Of a stretch of 52,545 nt of DNA, positions 1 to 14,127 are shown one piece after another. This DNA is from a virus. Lineage: Duplodnaviria; Caudoviricetes. A program made the position numbers and the translations under genes. The first letter of the stretch is position 1. Each line of letters starts with the position of its first letter. Location: IMG/VR virus record IMGVR_UViG_3300005825_000043, positions 1-52,545 of that record; one strand, 5' to 3'. The notes beneath the pieces were generated by a model. The model made no database searches and was not told where the DNA came from. It was given only the letters and a program-made list of their open reading frames with translations.

Positions 1-136
1 CCTCGTCCTTTTCGATGTCTATCAGCGACAGGGGCAACCATACGGCGTTGCTCTCCTCGCCATCATCGGAAACCAGCACAGCGCGCTCGGTCCTATGGTG
101 TACATGTAATTCCAAGTCAATCAGTTCATTGCTCAT
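1..136 (-). CDS. Small phage protein, truncated by the window edge (MSNELIDLELHVHHRTERAVLVSDDGEESNAVWLPLSLIDIEKDE...)
   Basis: Own translation from ATG at 136, open to position 1; overlaps stop of upstream gene; T-x-RA-V/I-L and W-x-P-x-S pattern shared with 43708..43938. Confidence 0.7.
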   Translation of the reverse strand, partial: MSNELIDLELHVHHRTERAVLVSDDGEESNAVWLPLSLIDIEKDE

Positions 137-794
137 TTTCTGCTCTCTCTCGAATAGCCTGCATGATCTCAATTACAACCGGCCAAGGGACGTCTACAAT
201 AATTTCTGGAGCATTTATACCATGTGACCCATGTACGCAGAAACCCGTTCTTGTTTTGAAGCGACCACTATACGTCTTGCGAGTGTCTTCACTTGGCGTC
301 AGCGCCTCGACATAACGGTCGATGGGCGTGGCTTTCAAAATGCGTAGACCCGAAAGAAACTTCTCGGCGTAACTATAAAATTTATTCCTTACGCCATTCA
401 GCTCTGCGTCCCAAACGCGCCCTATCTTATTGTCATAGAGCCACTGGGCAACGTATTCCAATGCAGGATCAATTGTTTTCGCCTTTTTCTTATTGTTCTT
501 CAGCTCTTCTATTATTATTTGTATATCCTTACGATACTTGTCCTTAATATGATCCCCTGTTCTAGCCCAATCATCTTTCATCATCGAATAAAACAACTCA
601 GCGGCACATAATTCTACGAGTTCTTCCAAACTCGTGTCAGTTTCCGACCATTTTTTATATTTCTTTATTACAGGGTTCATAATGTTATAATACTTATATT
701 TTATTGTATTATCTGCACTGTCCCAACATTGGCCATTCATGATTATATAAAGTCGCCGTGACGCCATCTCTAATTCTGGGTATTCAATTTTCAT
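126..794 (-). CDS. Hypothetical protein
   Basis: 222-aa ORF tightly coupled in a leftward operon. Confidence 0.7.
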   Translation of the reverse strand: MKIEYPELEMASRRLYIIMNGQCWDSADNTIKYKYYNIMNPVIKKYKKWSETDTSLEELVELCAAELFYSMMKDDWARTGDHIKDKYRKDIQIIIEELKNNKKKAKTIDPALEYVAQWLYDNKIGRVWDAELNGVRNKFYSYAEKFLSGLRILKATPIDRYVEALTPSEDTRKTYSGRFKTRTGFCVHGSHGINAPEIIVDVPWPVVIEIMQAIRERAENEQ

Positions 795-1104
795 CTTTTC
801 TCTCCATTTTCCGCTGTTGATTAATTTCCGGTGGCACCGGCTCTATGTGATCCGGGTTCACACACATGCTGAAGTGACATAGGTGGTCGCGATGGTATCC
901 CGGTGGACATGACTTCTTCCCTATCACGTCACATGCGAACCGGTGCGCCCGCACGGTCCTCTTGCCCAGGTGAAAGGACCCATACCATTTCCTGTTTCCC
1001 TTCCCCCGCGATCGTCCTCCTGTCCAGAACCAACATCCGTTCGGCAACTTGTCGACCTTTGACATAAACCGTTTGATATCGGCTTCTGTTGCATACAGCA
1101 TCAT
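784..1104 (-). CDS. HNH endonuclease
   Basis: CWFWTG...YG...RAHR...DHLC....CVNPDHIE pattern typical of phage HNH nucleases. Confidence 0.85.
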   Translation of the reverse strand: MMLYATEADIKRFMSKVDKLPNGCWFWTGGRSRGKGNRKWYGSFHLGKRTVRAHRFACDVIGKKSCPPGYHRDHLCHFSMCVNPDHIEPVPPEINQQRKMERKDEN

Positions 1105-1337
1105 GCATCACTCGTAATGTGCAACAGCGACACGACCACCATTCCGCCGATCGTGTACGCCTCGGGTTCTCGGAGCCACATCAACACTTTGGCTATAGTG
1201 CTGTAGTCCGGCACCTCCCCTTTTTCAATGCGACACAGCGTCGATGGGCTTATCCCCATCTCCTCGGCAGCCTTGCGCAGGGAGTAGTGCTTTTTTTGTC
1301 TGGTGTTATGTAGCGCTTCTCCCAGTTCCTGCATCAT
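1101..1337 (-). CDS. XRE/Cro-family helix-turn-helix regulator
   Basis: LHNTRQKKHYSLRKAAEEMGISPSTLCRIEKGEVP; start at 1337 gives ATGA overlap with upstream stop. Confidence 0.85.
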   Translation of the reverse strand: MMQELGEALHNTRQKKHYSLRKAAEEMGISPSTLCRIEKGEVPDYSTIAKVLMWLREPEAYTIGGMVVVSLLHITSDA

Positions 1338-1591
1338 AATCTCCCCGTGATCTTGTCGCCCCAATGAAACGGCGGCGGTGCGCCCCACCTTGCTTCGTAG
1401 GATACTCGAATGTCGTCGTAAGACTCTTTCAGCTCTCCGAGACTGATGAGCTTGTGCTCGTACGCGAAGCGCAACCGCAGCAGGTGCAACACGTAGGAGT
1501 GCGCCGCGAGGGCACATGATTTCCCACCTCGGCGGGAGGCGAACGCTATCGACGTCACTTTGTGCGGTTTGAAATTATTCAGTAATTTCAC
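1334..1591 (-). CDS. Hypothetical protein
   Basis: 85-aa ORF with overlapping start/stop on both sides. Confidence 0.6.
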   Translation of the reverse strand: MKLLNNFKPHKVTSIAFASRRGGKSCALAAHSYVLHLLRLRFAYEHKLISLGELKESYDDIRVSYEARWGAPPPFHWGDKITGRL

Positions 1592-2280
1592 TTCGTGTCT
1601 CCTAATATCTCTTTCCTCAGCCGATAGTAGCTCGATTTGCTGATTTGGAAGTAGCCCCTCAAATCCTCAAAGGATTTGTCCGTCAATATCGCCGCCCTTA
1701 TTCGATCCATCGCTGCGGGCGGCATCATGTCTTTGCGCAAGCGCCGCTCCATCGCTTCATACTTTTCAGCCTGCATCTTTTTCAACACGTGCGCGGGCGG
1801 TAATGGCTGCAGTTTAGAAGTGATGTCCGAGTAATTCCTCCCGGACCTTACGTGCGCCACCGTTGATTTGCCGATCCCAATGGACTTGGCTATCACCATC
1901 TTCGGCCATCCTTTGCACAGCATCTCCCAGATCTTGATCACTTCTTTTTCGGTCAACGGTGCACCGGGTTTCCGTATCACGTCCTCCTGCCAGTTTATAA
2001 CCCGCCATTCTATGTGGTTTGGGTTCATGCACCGGTCGAATGGATTGATGCATTTCATACAAGCCCTGTGATGCTCCGGGAATTGTCCTGTTACCCGTTC
2101 ACACATGTAATCGCGGGCATCAACCTCCCTATCCGAAACAAGGGCTATAACCGGGCCAGTCCTTTTTTTAGACCACGGCCAAACAAAACACTCGTTACCT
2201 ATAATGTCTCGGCTGTCTAAAGCCCAGTGCAACCAATCCACTGGATCTATTTCCTTGTAGTCCCCACTTAACTCGTACAT
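1588..2280 (-). CDS. HNH-like protein with C-terminal HTH domain(s)
   Basis: CFVWPW...C..C...RCMNPNHIEW followed by LTEKEVIKI...IAKSIGIGKSTVAHVRSGRNY. Confidence 0.65.
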   Translation of the reverse strand: MYELSGDYKEIDPVDWLHWALDSRDIIGNECFVWPWSKKRTGPVIALVSDREVDARDYMCERVTGQFPEHHRACMKCINPFDRCMNPNHIEWRVINWQEDVIRKPGAPLTEKEVIKIWEMLCKGWPKMVIAKSIGIGKSTVAHVRSGRNYSDITSKLQPLPPAHVLKKMQAEKYEAMERRLRKDMMPPAAMDRIRAAILTDKSFEDLRGYFQISKSSYYRLRKEILGDTK

Positions 2281-2328
2281 GTTGGCGTCTCACCCGAATA
2301 AATGACAAGGCACCAGCGCCTCATCTAT

Positions 2329-2357
2329 AGTATAGCACAGGGACGAGGCGCTGTCTA
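2329..2357 (-). promoter_or_regulatory. Sigma70-type promoter for the leftward operon
   Basis: Minus strand TAGACA-N17-TATACT with TGn extension; -10 flanked by inverted repeat CAGCGCCTC/GAGGCGCTG. Confidence 0.65.
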
Positions 2358-2422
2358 TGTTGATTTATGAGCCATGGTGCAGTGCACTTGTAGACGTACT
2401 ACAGCATATCTACGAATAAGTG

Positions 2423-2777
2423 CTCTAGAGTATGTCCAGAGACAGTTTCCATGTGCTGCATAGTATCTCAAAAATATAGTTTCTCCGTCCCTTATAGTAT
2501 CTCTTAGGCCAGCACGGTTTCCGACGACCATGTACCCTAGATACCACAGGTATGGTGACTCGGAGAGGTCATTACTCTGGCACACGTACCGGTTGCATGA
2601 CATAGTCCGAAGTTGTACCCTCTGGCAATGAGGTCCGGGAGTCGGTATACCTGTGGCGAGAGGGTAGGCTCGTAATCGGAAATGGTGCTGGCCTAAGAGA
2701 TACTATAGAGCACGGGGAAACGGGGGGTCTGAGATAGTATGCGGGAGGGTGGAAACGAAGGGGGAGATACTATAAAG
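2423..2777. repeat. Long imperfect inverted repeat centred at ~2600
   Basis: Perfect 23-bp arms 2493-2515 and 2685-2707; further symmetric arms 2544-2553/2647-2656, 2458-2470/2730-2742, 2423-2437/2763-2777. Confidence 0.9.
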
Positions 2778-3123
2778 GAACGAAGGGGTTAGCGAGGGCA
2801 AGGGCGCAGGAGCGGCGGAGGGACGCGGCGTAGAGGGGATTCAGTGGCCGAATAGAGGACAGTACAAAGTCCATAGTATCTTATCTCTAGGACTATATAT
2901 ACCAAGGTGGAGAGAGGGGGATACAACTTGCGAAAGCATTACAAAAAGAATCCTACGTTAGTATTACCGCCAGACCCCCCCGTAGCTACCTTGGGAGACG
3001 CGGCCCTAGACATAGGATACTGTGGACCTTGCTCTCTGTGTGCACTGCAGCAATTACATGCCCTCTGGAAACGCTCTCTTCATTCGGGTGTCCCCGTGTC
3101 CTTGATTCCCTCTCTCCTCTTCA

Positions 3124-3247
3124 TTCGGCTATTCCGCGACGGAGGAAACTCGCTCCCTGTCCCCTTTGGCTATTCCGCGACGGGCCATTTCGGTATTCCG
3201 CGACGTCCCTTCGGTATTCCGCGACGTAATTTCGGTATTCCGCGACG
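3124..3247 (+). repeat. Direct repeat array A1 (TTCGGTATTCCGCGACG x5, last three at 21-bp period)
   Basis: Seen directly in sequence. Confidence 0.9.
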
Positions 3248-3259
3248 CATTGTAATCGT

Positions 3260-3446
3260 GCCACATTGTTGCCACAATGCCACGTTACAGGCTTGCCACA
3301 TGTTACCCGGCTGCAACATTGTTGCCACAATGCCACGTTACAAGTTTGCCACATGTTACCAGCGTAACACACTGTTACCCGGCTGCAACACCATGTTACC
3401 CGGCTGCAATATTGCATATAAGTTACGTTACCAGCCAGACACATTG
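3260..3446 (+). repeat. Degenerate repeat array B1 (GCCAC..GTTACCCGG units)
   Basis: Multiple GCCAC and GTTAC(CCGG) units immediately after array A1. Confidence 0.8.
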
Positions 3447-3509
3447 TGTCCCTGTTATCACATTTCCGTGCTCCCATGGTTGCGGGCGCACCTGTGTGGC
3501 GCGCCCTCC

Positions 3510-3525
3510 TGTTTCACGTGGAACG
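3510..3525. promoter_or_regulatory. parS-like site TGTTTCACGTGGAACG
   Basis: 15/16 match to bacterial chromosomal parS consensus TGTTYCACGTGRAACA. Confidence 0.75.
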
Positions 3526-3530
3526 TTTCC

Positions 3531-3743
3531 TCATCGCCATGGAATTATTGGCCCGGTTGTGCCTTCTGGCACTGCAACCATAGTTCCGCTGTCGCACTGG
3601 CCTGCTTCTTCGATGGCCCACAGCACGTCGTCCTCGTCCAGCTGCAGCAGCATAGCGGCCTCGGAAACGTCCGCCCCCGTGCGGGTTATTCGGATTTCCT
3701 CCTCCCCGGAGGCATTCCATACGTCGTAAATGTCGAACGTCAT
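3531..3743 (-). CDS. Small early protein, YDI/V-x-N...WAI-x-E...CD family (paralog 1)
   Basis: MTFDIYDVWN...DDVLWAIEEAGQCD; aligns with 7150..7356 and 7682..7882; ATGA-coupled to upstream ORF. Confidence 0.8.
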   Translation of the reverse strand: MTFDIYDVWNASGEEEIRITRTGADVSEAAMLLQLDEDDVLWAIEEAGQCDSGTMVAVPEGTTGPIIPWR

Positions 3744-3856
3744 TTTGCAACTCCTTCGGGTATCGGCTTCGTTAGTTCGGCGATTGTAGCATCGAGCCGC
3801 TTCAACTGGGCCTTGATTGTGGCCATCGTCTTCTTCCACTCGCGGTCGTTTTCCAT
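3740..3856 (-). CDS. Small coiled-coil early protein (38 aa)
   Basis: AGGAGA RBS and promoter upstream; MENDREWKKTMATIKAQLKRLDATIAEL... Confidence 0.7.
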   Translation of the reverse strand: MENDREWKKTMATIKAQLKRLDATIAELTKPIPEGVAK

Positions 3857-3881
3857 TTGCCCTGTCTCCTTATTACTCCTC

Positions 3882-3986
3882 ATTCTACCATGGCGGATTG
3901 CCCATGTCAATATGTGTTGTATGCATGGCGATATGCACGGAATGCATGGCTGGAGGGTTGACACGGCAATCCGGATGTGGTAAGAT
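3882..3986. promoter_or_regulatory. Divergent promoter pair with central GCAT-N6-ATGC element (cassette 1)
   Basis: Minus TTGACA-N17-TAGAAT (3882-3910); plus TTGACA-N17-TAAGAT (3958-3986). Confidence 0.85.
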
Positions 3987-3992
3987 GGGGGC

Positions 3993-4036
3993 ACGGTCCA
4001 ATGAAGCGAAGCGAGGACCCGGAGTCCAACTATGCC
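3993..4036 (+). ncRNA. Putative small RNA 5' motif, copy 1
   Basis: ACGGTCC-loop-GGACCCGGAGTCCAAC starting 7 nt after a -10 box; no RBS/ORF follows. Confidence 0.5.
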
Positions 4037-4065
4037 CGTGTAACCGAGTCCAGACGTAGCAATGC

Positions 4066-4215
4066 GTGTAATTACACATGTGCGCTGACACCATGGAAGA
4101 ATGCGTGTTGGGACACTCGTGTAATTACACGCATTCGCTACAGCGATCACGGGGAAAGACATCCGGCGTCCCAGTGCAACGGCACCGATGTAAACATGCG
4201 TGTAATTACACGCAT
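4066..4215. repeat. Three GTGTAATTACAC palindromes (4066, 4119, 4200)
   Basis: Perfect 12-bp palindrome; extends to a perfect 20-bp palindrome at 4196-4215. Confidence 0.85.
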
Positions 4216-4226
4216 TTGAAGATTAA

Positions 4227-4260
4227 GGCATAGTTGGACTCCGGGTCCTCGTTGGACCGT
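4227..4260 (-). ncRNA. Putative small RNA 5' motif, copy 2
   Basis: Minus ACGGTCC-AACGA-GGACCCGGAGTCCAACTATGCC just downstream of a perfect TTGACA/TATAAT promoter. Confidence 0.5.
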
Positions 4261-4266
4261 ACGCGT

Positions 4267-4382
4267 ATTATACCATATAAGCGCTGGGCTGTCAATATCG
4301 TGAGCCATGCGTCGGACGCATGGCGGTATGCACGAGACACATACTTATGGCGCTTGACAGGGGGGTTTGGGTGTGGTAGAAT
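4267..4382. promoter_or_regulatory. Divergent promoter pair (cassette 2)
   Basis: Minus TTGACA-N17-TATAAT (4267-4295); plus TTGACA-N17-TAGAAT (4354-4382). Confidence 0.85.
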
Positions 4383-4432
4383 AGGAACAGATCGGAGGGC
4401 AGGGTGCCACCGACAAACAGGAGACTAGGAAC

Positions 4433-5182
4433 ATGAACATCCATCACGCAACCGCCAAAAAGGCAGAAGCAAATGGCGTCATCCTCACTGTGGAAGCGGG
4501 CGACGTGATCCGGGCACACTGGGTGGAAGGCAACCGGGTTCTCATCGGCAACGATCCGAAGCAGGTTCTGGCTGATATGCTCGTCATCAAGATGGCCGCG
4601 ATCGAATATCCGGCGATCAACATCGTCGCCGTGGCGATCGGCGAGTTCCAAGCCCAGATCGGTGAGGAAGTCGTGGCGGAAGCCAAAGACGCGCAGACGA
4701 CACTGGCTCTCGCTCTAGAATATGCCGAAGAGAACGACATCGACCCCGAGGAAGGGGCGGAGGAAGCGGACGAAGAGCGCCGTAACGTTGTAGTCCCGGA
4801 GCGCTACAAGGAGGAATATAAGGCACGCGGCAACGCCAATCACTGCGGCGACTGGCTTGCAATCACGCTGGATGGCAAGTTCATCGTGACAACCGAAGGT
4901 GGTCCCCAGTTCGACGTGGACGGCTTCCGGAGATGCCTCGCGGCAAACGGCGTCGACATGACCGGCAAGTGGGCCGGTCTCCCGGAAAGTGGCCAGCGCG
5001 GATGGCAGGGCCGGTATCGGATGAACGGGCGGCAGAAACTCGAAATCCGGGTTGCAGAGACCGGCGAGCTGAAACTGGGAAATACCACCCTCAAGGCTCC
5101 GCTGGAAGCACTGGACGCGATGTGGGAGCGCCACCCGGAAGCAGCCCTCAAATATGCGGAGGCCCACGAAGAAGCAGCCTGA
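4433..5182 (+). CDS. Acidic early protein; C-terminal domain paralogous to 47936..48367
   Basis: 249 aa, RBS, own promoter, GC3-rich codons. Confidence 0.9.
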   Translation: MNIHHATAKKAEANGVILTVEAGDVIRAHWVEGNRVLIGNDPKQVLADMLVIKMAAIEYPAINIVAVAIGEFQAQIGEEVVAEAKDAQTTLALALEYAEENDIDPEEGAEEADEERRNVVVPERYKEEYKARGNANHCGDWLAITLDGKFIVTTEGGPQFDVDGFRRCLAANGVDMTGKWAGLPESGQRGWQGRYRMNGRQKLEIRVAETGELKLGNTTLKAPLEALDAMWERHPEAALKYAEAHEEAA

Positions 5183-5205
5183 TCCGACTGAAGCCCAGCG
5201 CCCCC

Positions 5206-5221
5206 TGTTTCACGTGAAGCA
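5206..5221. promoter_or_regulatory. parS-like site TGTTTCACGTGAAGCA within a GC hairpin (5199-5228)
   Basis: 15/16 match to parS consensus. Confidence 0.75.
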
Positions 5222-5272
5222 GGGGGCGAAGGCGTATCTGGAAACCAGCCGGTACTCATTCGGGTATTCGGG

Positions 5273-5318
5273 CATCCCTCGCCTCCGGGTCCTAGGCGCT
5301 GGGCCATCTTTGAACCGT
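5273..5318 (-). ncRNA. Putative small RNA 5' motif, copy 3
   Basis: Minus ACGGTTC-19 nt-GGACCCGGAGGCGAGGGATG after a TATAAT box. Confidence 0.45.
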
Positions 5319-5324
5319 AACTCC

Positions 5325-5430
5325 ATTATACCACAGGGATCAACCCTTGTCAATATGTGTTGAGCGCATGGCGATATGCGTCGGACGCATGGCCGATCGA
5401 CTTGACAGGAAGCGCTGGGCATGGTACAAT
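5325..5430. promoter_or_regulatory. Divergent promoter pair (cassette 3)
   Basis: Minus TTGACA-N17-TATAAT (5325-5353); plus TTGACA-N17-TACAAT (5402-5430). Confidence 0.85.
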
Positions 5431-5460
5431 AAGTAATCGATCAAGCAGGAGGACTAAGCA

Positions 5461-5721
5461 ATGACGTCAGTAGCAACCGCAGTGTACCACGTCAAGTTGA
5501 ATCGCCAACGTGTATACATCATCACTGAATTGGACGAATCAGCAGTGCGGGATTGGTGCAACCAGGAATTCGGTTCTAAATGGCTGCATAATCGCCTGCC
5601 CCTGGATGGGTTCGGCATAGTGGACGTGCTGGTACAACTTGGGAATGTGCCATTCGTGGGCTTCAAGCCAACTCAGATCGTGGTGCTTGCGGATGGCACA
5701 GTGATCAAGCTCAAGGCGTAG
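5461..5721 (+). CDS. Small early hypothetical protein
   Basis: AGGAGG RBS, promoter upstream, GC hairpin downstream. Confidence 0.8.
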   Translation: MTSVATAVYHVKLNRQRVYIITELDESAVRDWCNQEFGSKWLHNRLPLDGFGIVDVLVQLGNVPFVGFKPTQIVVLADGTVIKLKA

Positions 5722-5776
5722 GATCAAGGGGGCGCTGGACGCGCCCCCACCACCAATCAAGCAGGAGACTAGAGTA

Positions 5777-5968
5777 ATGGAAAGCCTGACGCAAAAGATC
5801 AAAATCGCCGGTCGTCGAGTCGCTCCCACTCTGAGGAAAGGCGACCCAGCTAAGTGGGCTGCTTATCAGCGCCTCACCAACTACGAGCAGCGACTGAAAT
5901 GGCGTAAGGCCGTGGGTCATGCTGAATATTGCCGCCTTAGTCGCCTTGCATTTCACGGTTTCTTATAA
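5777..5968 (+). CDS. Small basic early hypothetical protein
   Basis: AGGAGA RBS in the shared ATCAAGCAGGAG leader. Confidence 0.7.
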   Translation: MESLTQKIKIAGRRVAPTLRKGDPAKWAAYQRLTNYEQRLKWRKAVGHAEYCRLSRLAFHGFL

Positions 5969-5987
5969 GCTTCAGCCCGTCGCGGAT

Positions 5988-6066
5988 TTTGGTATTCCGC
6001 GACGGGCATTCGGTATTCCGCGACGGGATTTCGGTATTCCGCGACGGGATTTCGGTATTCCGCGAT
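5988..6066 (+). repeat. Direct repeat array A2 (TTCGGTATTCCGCGACG x4, 21-bp period)
   Basis: Same unit as 3124-3247. Confidence 0.9.
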
Positions 6067-6070
6067 GCAG

Positions 6071-6225
6071 CGGAGCAACAATGTTACTCGGAAGCCACAT
6101 TGTTACCCGGAAGCCACGTTACCCGGGAGCAACAATGTTACCCGGAAGCCACGTTACCCGGAAGCCACGTTACCCGGAAGCCACATTGTGATCCGGAAGC
6201 CACATTGTGATCCGGAAGCCACACC
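6071..6225 (+). repeat. Tandem repeat array B2 (GTTACCCGGAAGCCAC-type, 18/21-bp units)
   Basis: About 8 units seen directly. Confidence 0.9.
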
Positions 6226-6253
6226 ACCGAGGGAGGGCGATCCAACATCCCCA

Positions 6254-6282
6254 AGCATAGCACGTCGGGACGCCGGTGTCAA
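6254..6282 (-). promoter_or_regulatory. Leftward promoter firing into repeat arrays B2/A2
   Basis: Minus TTGACA-N17-TATGCT; GCAT-N6-ATGC element at 6295-6308. Confidence 0.6.
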
Positions 6283-6432
6283 TACTCCCCGGACGCATGG
6301 CGGTATGCGTCGGACGCATGGCTCCGGGTACAATCCGGAGTTGCATATGCGAACCCCCCACAACCGAGCGAAGCGCGCAGCTCCCGGTTGCGCGCATTGG
6401 CGGCGTACAACCGGCTTCCGATCGCGCCCATG

Positions 6433-6460
6433 GTTGGACTCCGGGTCCTCGTTGGACCGT
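6433..6460 (-). ncRNA. Putative small RNA 5' motif, copy 4
   Basis: Identical 28-mer to copy 2; downstream ~100 nt (6335-6432) closely resembles 6860-6960. Confidence 0.5.
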
Positions 6461-6466
6461 AGGAAA

Positions 6467-6572
6467 ATCGTACCACATCCGGCTTCCCGAGTCAATACTC
6501 CCCGGATGCATGGCGATATGCGTCCCGTGCATGGTTTCTGGGGTTGCGTCGGCGATCCGGATGTGGTACAAT
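6467..6572. promoter_or_regulatory. Divergent promoter pair (cassette 4)
   Basis: Minus TTGACT-N17-TACGAT; plus TTGCGT-N17-TACAAT with TGTGG before -10. Confidence 0.75.
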
Positions 6573-6603
6573 GGGACATAGATCGAGAGCAGGAGATACG
6601 GAC

Positions 6604-6822
6604 ATGCAGAACGGATACATAGCGATGGCGATCCATACGAATTCCGACGGTAGCGGCAACCCCGGCGTGGAATATGGATGGGGTGCAACCGAACAGGCCG
6701 CTACCGATCGCCTATGGGAGCGCCTACGGGGGCAGGCATCCGAAATGTCCGACGACGAGGCCGAGATCGCGGCGCTCGTGGCGGAGTGGGAATTCGTCTG
6801 GGCGCTCCCGTTCGAGCAGTAG
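6604..6822 (+). CDS. Small acidic early protein
   Basis: GATCGAGAGCAGGAGA leader; MQNGYIAMAIHTN...WEFVWALPFEQ. Confidence 0.8.
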   Translation: MQNGYIAMAIHTNSDGSGNPGVEYGWGATEQAATDRLWERLRGQASEMSDDEAEIAALVAEWEFVWALPFEQ

Positions 6823-6838
6823 GAGCCATCCGGGGCGG

Positions 6839-6854
6839 TGTTCCACGTGGAACA
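6839..6854. promoter_or_regulatory. Perfect parS site TGTTCCACGTGGAACA at the centre of a perfect 36-bp palindrome (6829-6864)
   Basis: 16/16 match to parS consensus. Confidence 0.85.
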
Positions 6855-6960
6855 CCGCCCCGGAGTTGCATATGCGAACCCCCATACAACCGAGTGCAAC
6901 CCGTACACCCGGAATTGCATGCATGTTCGTGTCTACAACCGGCTTCCGATCGCGCCCATG

Positions 6961-6990
6961 GTTGGACTCCGGGTCCGCCCGCTGGACCGT
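6961..6990 (-). ncRNA. Putative small RNA 5' motif, copy 5
   Basis: Minus ACGGTCC-AGCGGGC-GGACCCGGAGTCCAAC. Confidence 0.5.
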
Positions 6991-6996
6991 AGGAAA

Positions 6997-7102
6997 AGTA
7001 TACCACATCCGGCTTCTCGGCGCAATCCCCGGAGCCATGCACGGAACGCATATCGCCATGCGTCGGAAACAGGTTGACACGGGCGTCCCGGCGTGGTAGG
7101 AT
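6997..7102. promoter_or_regulatory. Divergent promoter pair (cassette 5)
   Basis: Minus TTGCGC-N17-TATACT; plus TTGACA-N17-TAGGAT. Confidence 0.8.
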
Positions 7103-7149
7103 GGGGTATCGATCGGGGATGGCCCGATCGGGCATCGGGAGACACGGAC

Positions 7150-7356
7150 ATGCAGCGATACGATATCTACAACCAGGACGGGCAGACCATCCGGATGCGG
7201 GGCGTAGGCATCCGCACCGCCGCGCGGATCGCGGCCATCGATCCGGACGACATCCGATGGGCGATCGACGAGGAGGCCCGATGCGATGGCGCGGGCATCG
7301 TGGTCGTGGAGGCCGGGGATCCCGCGCCCGGCGTATGGGACGGCCTCCCCGGATAG
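7150..7356 (+). CDS. Small early protein, YDIYNQDG family (paralog 2)
   Basis: GGAGA RBS; MQRYDIYNQDG...DPDDIRWAIDEEARCD...VEAGDPAPG. Confidence 0.85.
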   Translation: MQRYDIYNQDGQTIRMRGVGIRTAARIAAIDPDDIRWAIDEEARCDGAGIVVVEAGDPAPGVWDGLPG

Positions 7357-7398
7357 CCCGGACGCGCGGCGGGGGGCCATCCCCCGCCCCATCCCCCC

Positions 7399-7414
7399 TG
7401 TTCCACGTGGAACA
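7399..7414. promoter_or_regulatory. Perfect parS site TGTTCCACGTGGAACA
   Basis: 16/16 match; not embedded in a longer stem. Confidence 0.85.
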
Positions 7415-7466
7415 CGCCCCGAAATTGTGGGCATTTTCGTGTCTACAACCGTGGTCGAAATCGGCC

Positions 7467-7512
7467 CATCCCTCGCCTCCGGGTCCTCTTGCTTGCGCCG
7501 TCCTTGGACCGT
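7467..7512 (-). ncRNA. Putative small RNA 5' motif, copy 6
   Basis: Minus ACGGTCC-19 nt-GGACCCGGAGGCGAGGGATG. Confidence 0.5.
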
Positions 7513-7518
7513 ATAAAA

Positions 7519-7634
7519 AGTATACCACGCCCGGATTCCCGTGTCAAGCCCAGAGGCCATGCGTTTCGTGCATGGCGGTATGCATTCCGTGCATGGCCTC
7601 CGGGCTTGACGCGGCGATCCCGGCATGGTATAAT
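7519..7634. promoter_or_regulatory. Divergent promoter pair (cassette 6)
   Basis: Minus TTGACA-N17-TATACT; plus TTGACG-N17-TATAAT. Confidence 0.85.
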
Positions 7635-7681
7635 CGGGGATGATCGGGGATCGGCCCGATCGGGGATCAGGAGCTAGGGAC

Positions 7682-7882
7682 ATGCAGGCATACGATATCT
7701 ACAACCAGGACGGGCGTACGGCGATCGCGCGGGGCATCGGGATCGATCGGGCGGCGGCGATCGCCGGGATCGATCCGGAGGACATCGGATGGGCCATCGA
7801 CGAGGCCGGACGATGCGATACCGATACGCATACGATCGTGGAGGCGGGGGATCCCGCCCCCGGCCCGATGCCGGCCCCGTAG
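7682..7882 (+). CDS. Small early protein, YDIYNQDG family (paralog 3)
   Basis: AGGAG RBS; MQAYDIYNQDG...DPEDIGWAIDEAGRCD...VEAGDPAPG. Confidence 0.85.
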   Translation: MQAYDIYNQDGRTAIARGIGIDRAAAIAGIDPEDIGWAIDEAGRCDTDTHTIVEAGDPAPGPMPAP

Positions 7883-8036
7883 GCATCCGGGGCGCGCGGG
7901 GGGGCCATCCCGGCCCCCCGCCATCCGGATGGTGTTTTCGCGTTTTCGCGTTTTCGCGTTTTGCATTTTCGATCACAGTTGTAGACACGAAAACACATAC
8001 AATTCCGGGACGCGCTGGGCGCGTCCCGATGCCGTC

Positions 8037-8318
8037 CTAGATCGCGCCCAGCGCGATGCGATCCAATATCGGGACCACATCCCAATGGGTATCCGGATGC
8101 GCGTGCACTCCGTCGCCCGATACCACCAGAGACGGCGATCCATGCCGGGTATCGTACGGATGCCACAACTGCCAGTGTTCGTCCGACCACCCGGCACACG
8201 CTAGGATCAGCGTGGGCGCATGTCCCCATATCGCCTCCGCCGCCATAGCTGCCCGGCGTGCGGTGCGCGCCATCTGGTCCGTATCGGGGGTGTCGATGGT
8301 CTGGATCGTATTCGTCAT
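8037..8318 (-). CDS. Small early hypothetical protein (93 aa)
   Basis: Shared GATCGAGAGCAGGAGA leader and promoter on minus strand; MTNTIQTIDTPDT... Confidence 0.8.
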   Translation of the reverse strand: MTNTIQTIDTPDTDQMARTARRAAMAAEAIWGHAPTLILACAGWSDEHWQLWHPYDTRHGSPSLVVSGDGVHAHPDTHWDVVPILDRIALGAI

Positions 8319-8349
8319 GTCCGTGTCTCCTGCTCTCGATCTATGCTCC

Positions 8350-8455
8350 ATTGTACCACGGCAGACCGCCCGTGTCAAGCCCGGAAGCCATGCACGGGAT
8401 GCATATCGCCATGCGTTCGACGCATATTGACGCGGGCGATCCGGCATGGTATAAT
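8350..8455. promoter_or_regulatory. Divergent promoter pair (cassette 7; both arms drive ORFs)
   Basis: Minus TTGACA-N17-TACAAT; plus TTGACG-N17-TATAAT. Confidence 0.85.
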
Positions 8456-8500
8456 CGGGGATAGATCGGGGATGGCCCGATCCGATCAGGAGATACCGAC

Positions 8501-8740
8501 ATGCAGACCGCTCCCAACACAACCGTCGCGCGCATCCGGGCCCTAAACGCGGAAGTTGCAGACCGGGCGCTATATATATCCCAGGCGGATAACGGCACGT
8601 GGGGCGTGTGCGACCGCTCCCAGCGCAACTCGGACGGGTATGTGATCCCGCGCCGCATCCGGGGCGCATCCGGATACCCGACGCTCCGGGAGGCCGGGGA
8701 GGCCGCCCGCACGCTATACGCCGCCCGCGCCCCCCGGTAG
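8501..8740 (+). CDS. Small basic early hypothetical protein
   Basis: AGGAGA RBS and promoter. Confidence 0.8.
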   Translation: MQTAPNTTVARIRALNAEVADRALYISQADNGTWGVCDRSQRNSDGYVIPRRIRGASGYPTLREAGEAARTLYAARAPR

Positions 8741-8826
8741 GGGGCGCATGCCGCCCGCGCGCGGGGATGGCCTCCCCGCGCCGGGACGGGCGCATGGCGG
8801 GTGCTGGGCGCGCCCCCCGCCAGAGG

Positions 8827-8924
8827 GCGCAAGCAAGATGCAAATGCAAGAGCACAAGCAAGATGCAAATGCAAGAGCGCAAGCAAGATGCAAGAGCGCA
8901 AGCAAGATGCAAATGCAAGAGCAC
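8827..8924 (+). repeat. Tandem GCAAG/GCAAAT-rich repeat (GCGCAAGCAAGATGCAAATGCAAGA x~4)
   Basis: Seen directly, just upstream of promoter 8938-8966. Confidence 0.85.
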
Positions 8925-8937
8925 ATGGCCCATGGAC

Positions 8938-8966
8938 TTGACAAGGCAAGCGTGCTATGGTACAAT
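8938..8966 (+). promoter_or_regulatory. Sigma70-type promoter
   Basis: TTGACA-N17-TACAAT with TGG before -10. Confidence 0.85.
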
Positions 8967-8997
8967 GGGGCATAGATCGAGAGCAGGAGACACCGAA

Positions 8998-9258
8998 ATG
9001 CAGAACACGGACCACGCCAACAACGTAGCAACCATCGTCCTCGGAATTGTAGTCGCCATCGCACTGGTCGTGGCGGGTGGCTTTCTTGGGGCGCTGATCA
9101 GCAAAGGCGATCCCGATACGAAATGGGAATTCGGGATCGAATACGAAGGGACTGCGGCGATCCTCGATTACGACCTGTCGTGGGAAGACTGCGTCGCCCT
9201 CTGGGCCGGTTCCGACGATGGTGTGTTCTGCCGGGTCGCACAGTTCGAGGTGGAATAG
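8998..9258 (+). CDS. Small single-pass membrane protein
   Basis: Shared leader; hydrophobic IVLGIVVAIALVVAGGFLGALI. Confidence 0.8.
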   Translation: MQNTDHANNVATIVLGIVVAIALVVAGGFLGALISKGDPDTKWEFGIEYEGTAAILDYDLSWEDCVALWAGSDDGVFCRVAQFEVE

Positions 9259-9302
9259 AGCATCGGGGGGCGCATTGTGCCCCCCTACTCTGCGGTCGAT
9301 AT

Positions 9303-9352
9303 GTGTAATTACACGCATCCGAAAACGTATATACCAATATGTGTAATTACAC
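9303..9352. repeat. Two GTGTAATTACAC palindromes (9303, 9341)
   Basis: Same motif as 4066-4215. Confidence 0.85.
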
Positions 9353-9447
9353 GCATTCGCTACTGCATTATTTAATACACCAAAGCATTATTCCAGCTAT
9401 ACTTATAGCAAATACAAATTCACTCCACCCGATGATGTCGAGGACAT

Positions 9448-9678
9448 TCATTCGGGTATCCCTTCATCAAGCGTTTTTGCAAGCATACGTATTAGTTGCA
9501 CTTTTTCATTTACCCCACGGGCCAAAGGGTCCTTGATTTTCTCCATACGATTGGCTATATCATATAGATATTTCTGCACGTCTATGATACCATTCAGTCT
9601 CCCTTCTTTTCGAGCTTCTTCGATCAGTTTGTGAAAGTTCGTCTTATCCTCAACTTTTTCGCGATTTGTTACTGGCAT
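9448..9678 (-). CDS. Hypothetical protein
   Basis: Last of four coupled leftward ORFs. Confidence 0.65.
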   Translation of the reverse strand: MPVTNREKVEDKTNFHKLIEEARKEGRLNGIIDVQKYLYDIANRMEKIKDPLARGVNEKVQLIRMLAKTLDEGIPE

Positions 9679-9918
9679 CTAAATGTCCCCTAATAATTGG
9701 TTAATGAGGATTTCGAAAGCTATACGAAGTGCTTTCTCCATATCTTTGTCAGTAAGACCGTATTCAGGATCACTGATATATGAGGCTTGAGCAGCAGAGA
9801 CTGCATTCTTCCATGCATTCTTCTTTCGGATTTCTTTGCGACGCCGTTGTTCTTCTTTTGTGGCTTCTGCAAGAATAGCTTCACGGATTATTTGTCTAGA
9901 GGACTCATGCATTTTCAT
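9679..9918 (-). CDS. Hypothetical protein
   Basis: Coupled ORF. Confidence 0.65.
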   Translation of the reverse strand: MKMHESSRQIIREAILAEATKEEQRRRKEIRKKNAWKNAVSAAQASYISDPEYGLTDKDMEKALRIAFEILINQLLGDI

Positions 9919-10259
9919 TTCCTCGCAGGCTTTATTTGTTTCAGTCGAGCTTTGATAGCTTGATCGAGGTTTAATAACATACCTTCATGCCATTGAAACA
10001 GTATTGTTTGATATGGAGAGGGTATGTTGGACCCCTTTTTTGCTTGTTGAACTTCAAACCGGGATAAATTGACGTGTGTCACTGTGCCCATGGAGTTTTC
10101 ATCATCGGCAAGTTCTCGCATAATATCAAGGGCACTCGCCAAGTCTGTTGTAGCGAAGGGATGAGAGGTTCTGACAACAGACTCATCAGTGTATTTATAG
10201 TACCAAGTGGTCTGTACTGCATATTGAGGCATATCTGTCAGTCCTTTTTCCTGGGCCAC
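9915..10259 (-). CDS. Hypothetical protein
   Basis: Coupled ORF; start may be the later ATG. Confidence 0.65.
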   Translation of the reverse strand: MAQEKGLTDMPQYAVQTTWYYKYTDESVVRTSHPFATTDLASALDIMRELADDENSMGTVTHVNLSRFEVQQAKKGSNIPSPYQTILFQWHEGMLLNLDQAIKARLKQIKPARK

Positions 10260-10690
10260 GGGAATTCTGAAGTAGGTAGATCACTTTCAGTGAAGTCATT
10301 GCTGCTGACAACAATTACTTCAGTAGGTCTATGTGCATAATGTGGCACTTTACCTTGCTCTTGTAGAGCTTGGGCGGCAGACAGTGAACTCTCGGAGATG
10401 ATCCATTCCTCGAAAAAACTGTCGCCGTACCATGGACGAAGGATTGGACCAAATTTGTCGAAACAATATTGTAGGACGACTTGAAATTTAGCATCACTGA
10501 TGATGAAGGTTTTAGCGAAATAGCCTTTTCCTTCGGTTGCGTCGAACCCGTGAGAAATCGAGTACACTTTCAGCAGCCTAAGGCGCTGGGCTAGTGTTCT
10601 TTTTGCCCGTTCATGAGATAGGCATTCAGCTTCAGTAGTAAATTCTTTACCATCATCAGCCACATACACGTTCTTGGTAACGGTCTTCAT
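10238..10690 (-). CDS. Hypothetical protein
   Basis: AGGAGA RBS; early-type promoter TTGTGT-N17-TACAAT at 10718-10746. Confidence 0.8.
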   Translation of the reverse strand: MKTVTKNVYVADDGKEFTTEAECLSHERAKRTLAQRLRLLKVYSISHGFDATEGKGYFAKTFIISDAKFQVVLQYCFDKFGPILRPWYGDSFFEEWIISESSLSAAQALQEQGKVPHYAHRPTEVIVVSSNDFTESDLPTSEFPWPRKKD

Positions 10691-10825
10691 TTATTTGTCT
10701 CCTGTATTCGATTGTTCATTGTACCACATCTGAGCCGCTGACACAATAGTACTTTATACCACATACGTGCGCGCGAGTGGAAACGGGACTTCCCACCGCC
10801 CTCCGCCTGTGCTATACTGCAGGGT

Positions 10826-11332
10826 ATGGAGCATGACTGGTTCATATTAAGGGTCCTATCAGGACAAGATGAAAGCGTTGAGGAAGCGCTGAGAACGCGT
10901 GGCTACAACGTTTATATGCCTTATTTGATTGAGTCACGACGTCATCGAAGACACAAGTGTTTGATAAATAGAGCAGTTCCATTATTTCCAGGGTATTTAT
11001 TTGTATCATTGAATGCACATGGGAACTGGAGAGACCTAAACAGCGTCCGTGGAGTGCTTGGGCCGATAAAATCACAAGGTGATCCTGCATTGATAGAAAG
11101 TGCAGAAATCGAGCAAATAATGGAAGCAGAAGCGCTAGGGCGTTTTGAAAATACAAGAACGGTCCGAATGGGCTTTAAAGTGGGCGACAAAGTATCCTTC
11201 GAGGCATTCGGGGCTGTAGTAACAGCATTCGTGAAGTCTTTCGTAGGAAAGAGTGGTTTCGAGGTATCTGGAGAAGCTGGAATGGGGCATTTCAGTGCTA
11301 CGAAATCATTCGATGAGTTAATTCCAGCATAG
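10826..11332 (+). CDS. NusG/RfaH-family transcription antitermination factor
   Basis: WFILRV.SGQD...L...G..VY.P...PLFPGYLFV...VRGV NGN domain; FKVGDKV KOW-like motif. Confidence 0.85.
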   Translation: MEHDWFILRVLSGQDESVEEALRTRGYNVYMPYLIESRRHRRHKCLINRAVPLFPGYLFVSLNAHGNWRDLNSVRGVLGPIKSQGDPALIESAEIEQIMEAEALGRFENTRTVRMGFKVGDKVSFEAFGAVVTAFVKSFVGKSGFEVSGEAGMGHFSATKSFDELIPA

Positions 11333-11429
11333 AACCTGTTCTGAGCGGGGGCGACAGCTTTCCGACGGGGTTCATGGCACAAGGAAGTATCCTTGAGTGC
11401 CACGCATGCTTGTATAGGAGTTTTCCGAT

Positions 11430-11930
11430 ATGTCAGAAAGCACTCAGGAGGCATTCGAAGAGCGTTTCGCTGCTCTCAGAATACCCGAAGAATATGTCGG
11501 ATATGATTTCAAGACATGTCTGACGGCTATCGACAACATCGGGCCATATTTCAAAGAGGATGTCATTGCGGCGATCTACCATTCGCGCGGACATCTCGGC
11601 GAGATGGCTTATTTGCTTAATAGAAACAGGGCGCGGGTTCGCGATTATGTTTTTGCCAACCGAGACGTCAAAGAAGTATTCGATAATATCCGAGAGACTT
11701 CTGTCGACTATATCGAAAGGTCCCACATGACTGCTGCATTGATGGGAGACGCACAAGCGGAGCGTTTCACATTGACCACGTTGGGCAAGGGGCGCGGTTA
11801 TACCACCCGAGTTGAGGCCACAGGCGAGGATGGTGGAGCTATTAGGTTTCAAGAGGTGGTCCGGAAAATTGTCGATCCTGTTGTACCTCCTTCGGATGAG
11901 GATAGTGCAGCCGATGAGGGCACCGATTAG
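11430..11930 (+). CDS. terS: Probable terminase small subunit
   Basis: Directly before terL; HTH-like segment and LGKGRGY..R.E.TG.DGG motif. Confidence 0.7.
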   Translation: MSESTQEAFEERFAALRIPEEYVGYDFKTCLTAIDNIGPYFKEDVIAAIYHSRGHLGEMAYLLNRNRARVRDYVFANRDVKEVFDNIRETSVDYIERSHMTAALMGDAQAERFTLTTLGKGRGYTTRVEATGEDGGAIRFQEVVRKIVDPVVPPSDEDSAADEGTD

Positions 11931-13201
11931 TGGCTGAGCAGGTACTTAGGCTCGAAATTGAGACTCCTAGAGTTTTCGTACCTGCACTGCAGCCGTCCAG
12001 ATATAAGGCCATCCATGGCGGCAGAGGCTCCGGGAAATCTCACTTTTTTGCTGAGAGGTTAGTTGAAAGAGTAGCATTTGAGGGTATTTCTGCAGTCTGT
12101 ATTCGTGAGTATCAGAAATCTCTTGACCAGTCAGTTAAGCGCCTATTGGAATTTAAGATCAGGGCGCTGGGCTTGCAGTCTTATTTTAAGATTTATGAAA
12201 ATAGGATCGAGTCAATAACTGGTGGTTTGATAATATTTCAGGGCATGCAGTCTCATAATGCTGAAACTATCAAGTCTCTGGAGGGGTTTGATGTAGCATG
12301 GGTGGAAGAGGCACAGAGCCTTTCCCAGCATTCTCTTAGTCTCCTTCGTCCTACTATTCGCAAGCCCAATTCTGAAATCTGGTTCTCTTGGAACCCGGAT
12401 AAAAAGAGCGATCCTGTCGATGCACTGTTCAGGGGTGGCACTCCCCCCATTGGTACTATTCTCATAGAAGTGAATTATTACGATAACCCATGGTTCCCGG
12501 ACGTACTCAGGGAAGAAATGGAATACGATAAGAAAAGGGACCATGCGAATTACCTTCATGTTTGGATGGGCAAGTACCACAGTGTCTCTGAGGCATTAGT
12601 ATTTAAGAATTGGAAGATACAAGAATTCGAGGCACCAGAGGGTGTAAGGCTTCTATTTGGTGGTGACTGGGGTTTCTCTAAAGATCCGTCTGTTCTTGTT
12701 CGCTCTTTCATCGAAGATAGGCAACTGTTTATAGATTATGAAGCGTACAAGATTGGATGTGAGATTGATTATCTGCCCGCATTATTTGCTGGGTCAGACA
12801 CCAAGAAGCCGAGGCGCTGGCAAAATCCATTCGGTTTTCCGGGTGTCCCCGGTGCCGCTGTTTGGCCAATAGTAGCGGACAGTGCTCGCCCTGAAACTAT
12901 TAAATACATGCGTATGCGCGGTTTCGATATAAGGAAGGCTATCAAGGGCGCTAGGTCCGTGGAAGAGGGTGTTGAATTTCTTCGTTCTTATGACATAATA
13001 GTCCACCCACGTTGCACGAACACTATTTATGAGTTGGAGAATTATTCTCACAAGATAGACAAGATGACGGAAGAGATCCTACCTACTCTTGAGGACAAGG
13101 ATAATCACGTCATTGATGCCCTGAGATACAGTGCCGAAGGTGTAAGAAGGGCTACGAGGCATCAACAGATGTCTGGACCAATAGTTATTGGCAGGAACTG
13201 A
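11930..13201 (+). CDS. terL: Terminase large subunit (PBSX family)
   Basis: GGRGSGKS Walker A, AWVEEA Walker B, DWGF and NHVIDALRY nuclease motifs. Confidence 0.95.
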   Translation: MAEQVLRLEIETPRVFVPALQPSRYKAIHGGRGSGKSHFFAERLVERVAFEGISAVCIREYQKSLDQSVKRLLEFKIRALGLQSYFKIYENRIESITGGLIIFQGMQSHNAETIKSLEGFDVAWVEEAQSLSQHSLSLLRPTIRKPNSEIWFSWNPDKKSDPVDALFRGGTPPIGTILIEVNYYDNPWFPDVLREEMEYDKKRDHANYLHVWMGKYHSVSEALVFKNWKIQEFEAPEGVRLLFGGDWGFSKDPSVLVRSFIEDRQLFIDYEAYKIGCEIDYLPALFAGSDTKKPRRWQNPFGFPGVPGAAVWPIVADSARPETIKYMRMRGFDIRKAIKGARSVEEGVEFLRSYDIIVHPRCTNTIYELENYSHKIDKMTEEILPTLEDKDNHVIDALRYSAEGVRRATRHQQMSGPIVIGRN

Positions 13202-14124: not shown

Positions 14125-14127
14125 GTT

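Follow-up and report, generated by a model that had tools for sequence, protein, structure and literature searches.

Back-to-back promoter cassettes with a conserved hairpin leader and very short reading frames in a tailed phage

Described systems and the present locus

Promoter-early stem-loop (PeSL) cassettes have been described in the T4-type phages RB49 and phi1 (Arbiol et al., 2010; PMC2839356). They are small repeated cassettes of a plastic early region, each combining a sigma70-consensus promoter, a stem-loop and, on its 3' side, a Shine-Dalgarno (SD) sequence with a start codon. The genes that they flank are small and have no known relatives, close relatives differ by gain, loss or replacement of whole modules, and the cassettes form arrays in which the transcription accumulating along strong early promoters must be stopped. 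Here we describe a comparable arrangement at positions 3882-8966 of the IMG/VR virus record IMGVR_UViG_3300005825_000043. The DNA analysed, called the window below, is that complete record, linear, 52,545 bases long and with an estimated completeness of 68%. The region carries seven pairs of back-to-back promoters, and in six pairs one arm leads to a conserved hairpin leader, ending in a start codon, and a frame of 2-50 codons; we call these the hairpin arms.

The likeness to PeSL cassettes is close in several respects. A strong sigma70-consensus promoter is repeated many times in the presumed early region, 15 of the 16 promoters are followed by a GGAG-type SD sequence and ATG (the exception is the promoter at 6282 on the minus strand, written 6282-), the open reading frames (ORFs) served by the array are small genes without known relatives, and modules may be exchanged between related strains. 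On the other hand, promoters here point both ways around a single conserved operator-like site in each pair, and one arm of six pairs lacks a cargo gene. The stem-loop stands at the 5' end of the predicted transcript and measures only 5 bp, and it is therefore unlikely to be the terminator; separate long hairpins are predicted to terminate. The phage, too, is not T4-type: it is tailed, has a tape-measure gene and is distantly linked to Wolominvirus, and its terminase, portal, tape measure and PolA find their best cultured matches, at 41-42% identity, in Ochrobactrum, Roseobacter and Arthrobacter phages. We file the array as a variant resembling PeSL-type cassettes and not as a PeSL member itself.

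Other systems bear on the hairpin arms. The bar minigene of phage lambda comprises an SD sequence, AUG, a few codons and a stop, transcribed from a strong promoter. Base pairing at the 5' terminus and a 5' SD sequence, as in the ompA leader and STAB-SD, stabilise mRNA, and lambda oop is a short antisense RNA of a temperate phage. The hairpin arms resemble the ompA leader and STAB-SD in having a hairpin that starts 2 nucleotides (nt) from the predicted 5' end and precedes a strong SD sequence, but the RNA to be stabilised here would be non-protein-coding, and the stem is short and without covariation. With bar and with synthetic minigenes (PMC2490762), the arms share the order of SD, AUG, few codons and stop, the phage-borne setting and the strong promoter; they differ in a frame length that is not conserved and in being arrayed behind a conserved 5' stem-loop. 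Interference between convergent promoters is established for pR-pL of phage 186 (PMC7498355) and for model systems (PMC5001618). Like 186 pR-pL and oop, the arms would send a short transcript from its own strong promoter against a neighbouring unit; in L144, a metagenomic fragment with the same leader, the arm faces a promoter-like site on the opposite strand and the two predicted starts lie about 64 nt apart. Unlike those systems, the arrangement is repeated six-fold in a lytic-type early array and would overlap no coding region if the RNAs stop at their hairpins.

Promoter pairs, hairpin leader and mini-frames

A scan for TTGnnn-N14-TGnTAnnnT returned 19 sites in the 52.5-kb window, 16 of them within the roughly 5.1 kb of the array, and a consensus scan of 2500-11500 gave 22 promoter-like sites against 7.0 +/- 2.7 in shuffled sequence. 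The spacer is 17 nt in all 16 array promoters, and in 15 of them TGG precedes the -10 box. They form seven divergent pairs with the 17-bp spacers reported in an earlier note on this DNA (3910-/3958+, 4295-/4354+, 5353-/5402+, 6495-/6544+, 7025-/7074+, 7547-/7606+ and 8378-/8427+), besides two solo promoters (6282- and 8938+). Only the pair 8378-/8427+ has real ORFs on both arms. The two best promoters of the array, each matching the consensus at 12/12 positions, belong to hairpin arms 2 and 3, and the weakest to arms 4 and 5: arm 4 scores 9/12, and arm 5 falls below the threshold of the consensus scan, being found with the TTGnnn-N14-TGnTAnnnT pattern only.

Between the -35 boxes of each pair lies one copy of an operator-like 27-nt motif, GCATGGCGRTATGCRYNNNNYGCATGG. 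The window holds seven exact copies and one with three mismatches, where 0.01 would be expected by chance (3923-3949, 4318-4344, 5366-5392, 6295-6321, 6508-6534, 7035-7061 on the minus strand, 7570-7596, and 8388-8414 on the minus strand). Exact copies also occur in intergenic DNA of two unrelated IMG/VR contigs (L115, 1706-1732; L116, 5317-5343), which suggests a more widely distributed regulator. Candidates for the protein that would bind the predicted operator are the products of the small array ORFs and of ORF 1588-2280(-), which has a weak helix-turn-helix match.

The hairpin leader follows a strict design. The pattern ACGGTCC-N(3-25)-GGACCCGGAG has five exact copies in the window (3993+, 4260-, 6460-, 6990- and 7512-, i.e., arms 1, 2, 4, 5 and 6), and none of 100 shuffles gave a match; a sixth copy, at 5318- in arm 3, has the variant ACGGTTC before the same GGACCCGGAG. 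The first A of ACGG stands 7 nt past the last base of the -10 box (6 nt between) in 6/6 hairpin arms. From this promoter geometry we predict that transcription starts at that A, and the transcript would then open with 2 free nt, a 5-bp stem closing a loop of 5-19 nt, GGAG, 7 nt and AUG. The earlier note had described the motif, its fixed distance from the promoter, its loops and the single U-G pair retained by the GGTTC stem, all of which stand. The alternative GGAC/GTCC pairing that it proposed is available in the four copies with TCCAAC and absent from the others.

The six window copies were aligned with that of L144. In 7/7 copies ACGG, the ten bases GGACCCGGAG and the ATG are invariant, whereas differences occur in the promoter spacer, in the 6 nt before +1, in the loop and from the third base after ATG onwards. 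Two 7-nt spacers (TCCAACY and GCGAGGG) and two continuations (ATGCC and ATGGG) occur in all four combinations, and GGAG is followed after 7 nt by ATG in all six window copies (GGAGG in the GCGAGGG variant). Because the likeness runs from the predicted +1 to the ATG, the conserved unit is a predicted 5' untranslated region with its start codon; the alignment supports reading it as a promoter-proximal element of the transcribed strand with constant arms and a variable loop. An RNA-level feature is favoured because the spacing of the arms is free, wobble occurs on the transcribed strand only and a loop insertion spares both stem arms. The 5' untranslated part measures 29-43 nt in the hairpin arms, and the nine arms with real genes fall in the same range with other leaders, three of which start with a hairpin GATCGGG-loop-CCCGATC followed by CAGGAG and ATG.

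According to the earlier note, the hairpin arms had no ribosome-binding site or ORF. That part of its description does not hold: in the sequence they possess a canonical ribosome-binding site and a start codon, the very ATG in which the motif string of the note had ended, and what is missing is a gene of normal size. The frames from arm 1 to arm 6 read MPV*, MP*, 21 codons, 50 codons, MGAIGSRL* and MGRFRPRL*. Four of the six window copies, together with L144 and its overlapping version L145 (three codons), fit the minigene form of SD, AUG, 2-8 codons and stop, the others having 21 and 50 codons. The second codon is CCC or CCT in four copies and GGC in three, so always Pro or Gly. Leader and cargo go together: 6/6 hairpin leaders precede frames of 2-50 codons, and 9/9 other leaders precede ORFs of 38-249 amino acids (aa). 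The promoter 6282- has neither type of leader and runs into tandem repeats.

The same leader recurs outside this phage. L144 and L145 are overlapping versions of one metagenomic fragment from an A+T-richer phage, in which TTGACA-17-TATGCT is followed by 6 nt, ACGGCCC, an 8-nt loop, 22 nt identical to arm 3 and the frame MPI*. The arm is again half of a divergent pair, the other half of which drives a real ORF, and the L145 region is dense in promoters (13 sites against 2.6 in shuffles). Between L144/L145 and the window no other DNA or protein likeness was detected, and no relatives of the fragment were found in IMG/VR (with an L145 protein as query) or among cultured phages. By eye, the shared leader resembles a G+C-rich island within A+T-rich DNA. 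The metagenome scan with the 22-mer pattern gave 40 hits, of which the real ones are L144, L145 and L150; L150 is the same phage as the window, with one single-nucleotide polymorphism in a -10 box. Two stretches that looked promising, L117 and L139, were rejected as the start of an ordinary long bacterial gene. The 22-mer pattern has no match in IMG/VR and 38 chance hits in prokaryote genomes, and ACGGTCC-N-GGACCCGGAG occurs in 103 IMG/VR stretches, each with a single copy, at chance level (promoter in place in 0/103, ATG at +7 in 1/103).

Predicted transcripts and what the hairpin arms may do

Downstream of the leaders, strong hairpins follow four of the six arms, with z scores of -2.9 to -8.2: -25.5 kcal/mol (z -4.85) for 5318-, -36.4 kcal/mol (z -8.2) for 6990-, -11.5 kcal/mol (z -2.9) for 6460-, and a palindrome hairpin of -10.8 kcal/mol (z -4.0) for 4260-; further G+C-rich hairpins lie downstream of 7512-. 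The predicted RNAs would be about 70-160 nt long. Five of the six arms are directed towards the terminator that follows the upstream rightward gene. The remaining one, 3993+, and arm 2 run towards each other, and the 214-bp segment between the two holds three copies of a 22-bp palindrome, AATGCGTGTAATTACACGCATT and variants, at 4061-4217. These palindromes may form a protein-binding array, act as bidirectional terminators or make up an origin-like element; their 18-nt core has one match in IMG/VR, which lies in a coding region and is at chance level. None of arms 3 to 6 is faced by a sigma70-consensus partner promoter. The earlier note had considered antisense RNAs converging on the 3' end of the neighbouring ORF; no such overlap is seen if the RNAs stop at the strong hairpins, as we infer.

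In the anatomy of the units we have high confidence. What the arms do is another matter, and the explanation we put first is a tentative one to which we give somewhat less than an even chance: the region would be an early-gene array of repeated bidirectional regulatory cassettes, and the hairpin arms would be insulating, stabilised short counter-transcripts acting mainly in cis. Each cassette would comprise two back-to-back host-type promoters around one operator-like site, with a short leader, an SD sequence and an ATG after each promoter. A hairpin arm would then be a miniature expression unit of promoter, 5' stem-loop, SD sequence, AUG, mini-ORF and strong hairpin, the last usually serving as the bidirectional terminator of the neighbouring gene. 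Its RNA would be made early and abundantly by the host polymerase, and the 5' stem-loop and a bound ribosome would make this short RNA long-lived. Firing against the flow of the upstream module, the strong arm promoter would block read-through polymerases, and a stable antisense RNA would be supplied to any read-through message, so that neighbouring modules are insulated from one another; both arms would be shut off jointly through their common operator. What the sequence itself shows is the anatomy, a likeness held strictly between the predicted +1 and the ATG, and the recurrence in an unrelated phage fragment. In favour of the explanation we also count the non-random motif, its fixed distance from the promoter, the tie between leader and cargo, the orientation of the arms, the strong hairpins after four of them, the strain variant whose loop insertion spares both stem arms, and the need stated for PeSL arrays to stop accumulating transcription.

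Several observations weigh against it. No compensatory change is found at any of the five stem pairs in the seven copies, the exceptions to strict pairing being the one U-G pair of arm 3 (GGTTC) and a C-A mismatch at the middle pair in L144. Folds of the leaders and of the whole predicted RNAs have z scores between -1.15 and +0.92 against shuffles in 10/10 cases, and the 5-bp hairpin, a stem-loop of about -8 kcal/mol located after the predicted start and without a T-run, is the minimum-energy fold in only 3/7 leaders. The hairpins after arms 1 and 6 match shuffles (z +0.3 and -0.8), and none of the downstream hairpins has a T-run, for which reason the 3' ends of the predicted RNAs are only guesses. 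The six window copies are related by duplication, so that the independent lineages number two. Parts of the stretch are present in ten RNA libraries, of which three, with one DNA run, were compared over positions 1-20000 as contigs. The metatranscriptome contigs cover early and late genes at similar low depth, without strand or ends, and some span promoter gaps, where DNA carry-over or read-through is inseparable from real transcripts; contig cover thus speaks neither for nor against expression. Finally, insulation does not obviously need an exactly conserved SD-AUG, and RNA function or its translation may be what is selected. Since the invariant SD-AUG is not readily accounted for by insulation, a trans-acting decoy RNA and a minigene effect are both kept as live rivals.

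The first of these rivals, possible yet on the unlikely side, holds that the arms make abundant small RNAs that act in trans as decoys, sponges or anti-defence RNAs, with the conserved 5' module as the part that a host or phage factor, the ribosome perhaps, takes hold of, while the variable loop and the body either give specificity or are irrelevant. Near-consensus promoters, two of them at 12/12, would suit such products, as would the strict conservation of the same 5' module in two unrelated phages and a loop whose length varies among copies and strains with the stem arms intact. The RNA bodies, however, are not conserved among the arms, none of the five stem pairs covaries, and the folds give no thermodynamic signal. 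Rfam 15 gave no hit at the gathering threshold in the whole window, and the three hits in 3700-9100 are at chance level (E 1.1-3.7). Evidence for a structured RNA family is thus weak, and the small-RNA family proposed in the earlier note keeps its promoter-proximal, transcribed-strand element with a variable loop while losing both the ORF-less and the structured parts of the claim. Guide-like loops find little favour either. Of four loops compared with the phage genome one has an unusual match, a 13-mer common to the loop of arm 6 and the tandem repeat at 8826, the first unit of the block 8824-8942 (2/200 shuffles), and the other three match at chance level. A CsrA-type sponge was rejected, GGA motifs being enriched at p < 0.05 in only one of the six predicted RNAs (p 0.03, uncorrected for six tests). 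A solitary CRISPR-repeat mimic, a nut/boxB-like antiterminator hairpin and an anticodon-loop mimic were rejected on anatomy because each needs a constant loop, and an integron attC-like site was rejected, no integrase having been noticed among the window proteins scanned. The minigene effect, very unlikely in our estimate, would have translation of the 2-8-codon frames, expressed massively and early, tie up ribosomes or Pro/Gly tRNAs as peptidyl-tRNA, by analogy with the lambda bar mechanism, as a translational host shut-off or timing device. Frames of 2, 3, 3 (L144), 8 and 8 codons, the bias of the second codon to CCC/CCT or GGC, and an SD-7 nt-AUG that is invariant in 7/7 copies with the likeness stopping just past the AUG are in keeping with it, and tRNA sequestration by minigenes is an established mechanism (PMC2490762). 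Against it, minigene toxicity is reported there for cells defective in peptidyl-tRNA hydrolase. Nor is the stop conserved, one frame having 21 codons and one 50, and the stops of both 8-codon frames sit within a separate conserved DNA motif, TTGnnn-N12-13-TACAAC(C/T)G, that is also found outside such frames.

A plainer account is that the cassette is intrinsically bidirectional and that, in a one-way array, its leftward arm is left without cargo and kept by co-copying. The pair 8378-/8427+ drives genes both ways; the modules at 6460, 6990 and 7512 have clearly arisen by tandem duplication (mean column identity 75%), two of their ORFs being paralogs at 65% identity; frame lengths are irregular; and the promoters of arms 4 and 5 are the weakest. 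We nonetheless consider this account unlikely because of the sharp conservation of the leader and its recurrence in a second phage: ACGG, GGACCCGGAG and ATG are invariant in 7/7 copies while the surrounding DNA is far less conserved, the hairpin leader never stands on a real gene whereas other leaders do so in 9/9 cases, and the cargo-less arm is found again in an unrelated phage and owns the two best promoters of this array. A site at the DNA level, either a pair of GGWCC half-sites for a protein or, at the cassette borders, a cruciform or recombination site, is highly improbable. It would explain why both stem arms are conserved in sequence and not by covariation, and contigs of related strains do join or replace whole modules. 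Yet their junctions lie at terminator palindromes or within a 43-nt repeat and not at the motif, GGWCC is common (104 sites in the window), and a site for a dimeric protein in particular looks unlikely from the sequence because the two half-sites stand anywhere from 5 to 19 nt apart, the one wobble (arm 3) is compatible with the transcribed strand only, and the conservation, at its constant position after the -10 box, spans +1 to ATG. A bolder version of the trans-acting idea, which we regard as quite unlikely, sees in the leader a horizontally mobile "mini-message" module whose product would be a short, stabilised, ribosome-loaded RNA; transcribed in bulk from the strongest promoters during the first minutes, the six RNAs would target the translation machinery of the host in trans, occupying initiating ribosomes or Pro/Gly tRNAs, or else some RNA-binding defence factor. 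If this were true, they would form a class of early phage effectors that are neither proteins nor classical base-pairing small RNAs.

Layout, genomic setting and turnover of the array

From left to right, the array opens with the minus-strand arm of pair 1 (3882..3910, TTGACA-17-TAGAAT), which would drive the leftward ORFs 3856-3740 and 3743-3531. Its partner, hairpin arm 1 (3958..4043, +), has its promoter at 3958-3986, its leader at 3993-4031 (stem GGTCC/GGACC, 15-nt loop, GGAG) and the mini-ORF MPV* at 4032-4043. Hairpin arm 2 (4223..4295, -; promoter 4295-4267, 12/12) has a leader with a 5-nt loop at 4260-4232 and MP* at 4231-4223, and is paired with an ORF arm (4354..5182, +; promoter 4354-4382) for a 249-aa ORF of an unnamed family at 4433-5182. 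Hairpin arm 3 (5195..5353, -; promoter 5353-5325, 12/12) comprises the GGTTC-variant leader at 5318-5276 with a 19-nt loop, a 21-codon frame at 5275-5210 and a strong hairpin at 5197-5226; its partner (5402..5968, +; promoter 5402-5430) serves ORFs 5461-5721 (86 aa) and 5777-5968 (63 aa).

The solo promoter TTGACA-17-TATGCT (6254..6282, -) lacks a hairpin leader and points into tandem repeats at 6222-5970. Short tandem repeats form four blocks, 5984-6065, 6048-6222, 7934-7966 and 8824-8942, with periods of 21, 16/19, 8 and 19/25 nt; they look like iterons, and the first two blocks would be transcribed from this predicted promoter.

Hairpin arm 4 (6279..6495, -; promoter 6495-6467) has its leader with a 5-nt loop at 6460-6432, a hairpin at 6322-6340 and a frame of 50 codons at 6431-6279, in which the stop present in arm 5 is lost; the ORF arm beside it (6544..6822, +; promoter 6544-6572) serves ORF 6604-6822 (72 aa). 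In hairpin arm 5 (6830..7025, -; promoter 7025-6997) the leader at 6990-6960 has a 7-nt loop, the mini-ORF MGAIGSRL* lies at 6959-6933 and a bidirectional hairpin of -36.4 kcal/mol at 6833-6866. Its partner (7074..7356, +; promoter 7074-7102) has a leader with its own 5' hairpin and ORF 7150-7356 (68 aa). Hairpin arm 6 (7390..7547, -; promoter 7547-7519) carries a leader with a 19-nt loop at 7512-7470 and MGRFRPRL* at 7469-7443, next to an ORF arm (7606..7882, +; promoter 7606-7634) for ORF 7682-7882 (66 aa). The last pair drives ORF 8318-8037 (93 aa) to the left (8037..8378, -; promoter 8378-8350) and ORF 8501-8740 (79 aa) to the right (8427..8740, +; promoter 8427-8455), and a solo ORF arm (8938..9258, +; promoter 8938-8966) serves ORF 8998-9258 (86 aa).

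ORFs 7150-7356, 7682-7882 and 3743-3531(-) are paralogs, the latter two with 65% and 36% identity to the first, and share a W-A-I-(D/E)-E-x-x-x-C-D core. No Pfam family was found for the eight array ORFs scanned, and no PHROG family for the seven small array ORFs scanned or for the 249-aa ORF. The 249-aa protein has 105 metagenomic relatives at about 29-58% identity, of which two shorter ones bear a PhdYeFM antitoxin domain (PF02604), and a partial homolog in p15 of Ochrobactrum phage vB_OspP_OH (40.6% identity over 48% of the query). IMG/VR protein searches with this ORF or with the small paralog family gave no relatives.

A further motif, TTGnnn-N12-13-TACAAC(C/T)G, occurs at 6388-6411, 6866-6890, 6915-6939 and 7425-7449 on the plus strand and at 8002-7978 on the minus strand. 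Three copies (6866+, 7425+ and 8002-) come immediately after a terminator hairpin and have the orientation of the gene upstream, and two (6388+ and 6915+) sit further downstream. The motif is directed against arms 4, 5 and 6, the predicted overlaps being 43-57 nt. As it resembles short-spacer housekeeping promoters of alphaproteobacteria, it may be a weak or later promoter.

The window encodes a large terminase, portal, tape measure, tail protein, helicase, family-A DNA polymerase and primase; no tRNA gene was found in its 52,545 bases, and BLAST found no DNA-level relatives among cultured phages or plasmids. The best cultured match of the polymerase is in vB_OspP_OH, at about 42% identity, and those of the portal, also at about 42%, are in Roseobacter and Arthrobacter phages; an IMG/VR search with the portal protein found only phages at 46% identity. 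In the leftward operon adjoining the array, ORFs 784-1104(-) and 1588-2280(-) are HNH-endonuclease-like, the latter with a weak helix-turn-helix match as well. G+C content is 60.5% in the array against 47.9% in the rest of the genome, a contrast that fits import of the cassettes from a G+C-richer lineage.

The nearest cultured relative, vB_OspP_OH (MT028492.1, Wolominvirus), shares with the window its promoter style (TTGACA-N14-TGGTAnnnT) and the ORF-arm leader that ends in CAGGAGACACCGAAATG, and it has the polymerase noted above and the homolog of the 249-aa protein. Its first 13 kb hold 11 sites of this style, nine on the plus strand and two on the minus strand (780- and 333-), each followed by an SD sequence and ATG. 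It differs in having one weak divergent pair (780-/949+) and no array of pairs, and it has no hairpin-type leader, the sole match to GGACCCGGAG with at most one mismatch in the 41-kb genome lying inside the primase-polymerase gene. The word "promoter" is absent from the paper describing this phage.

Contigs of related strains bear on the turnover of modules. In one library a strain variant has a 2-nt insertion inside the loop of arm 4, with both stem arms intact. One contig joins 6405 to 6934 across a shared stretch of 43 nt, which may be an assembly collapse, and another replaces 6855-7395 by 26 other nt. Contigs of the DNA run depart from the window sequence at 6859, 7399 and 7423, which lie at the terminator palindromes, so that these palindromes may be joints for module exchange; the terminator hairpins at 3512-3523, 6841-6852 and 7401-7412 share the palindromic core TTCCACGTGGAA or a near variant. 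On single low-depth contigs, the picture fits gain and loss by whole cassettes.

Arrays of strong early promoters with small genes of no known function are where phages keep host-takeover and anti-defence functions, and only a few model phages have shown how these arrays are insulated, timed and reshuffled. What is unusual here is that the pairs are strictly back-to-back and share one operator-like site, that the second arm of six pairs yields only a conserved leader and a tiny frame, and that the same leader, bounded by the predicted transcript start and the start codon, occurs in an unrelated phage. At about 100 bp, the unit is small enough for direct reporter constructs. Should the arms be insulators, they would offer a compact natural means of isolating strong promoters; should the effector be the short translated RNA itself, it would add a new kind of product to those that phages make early.

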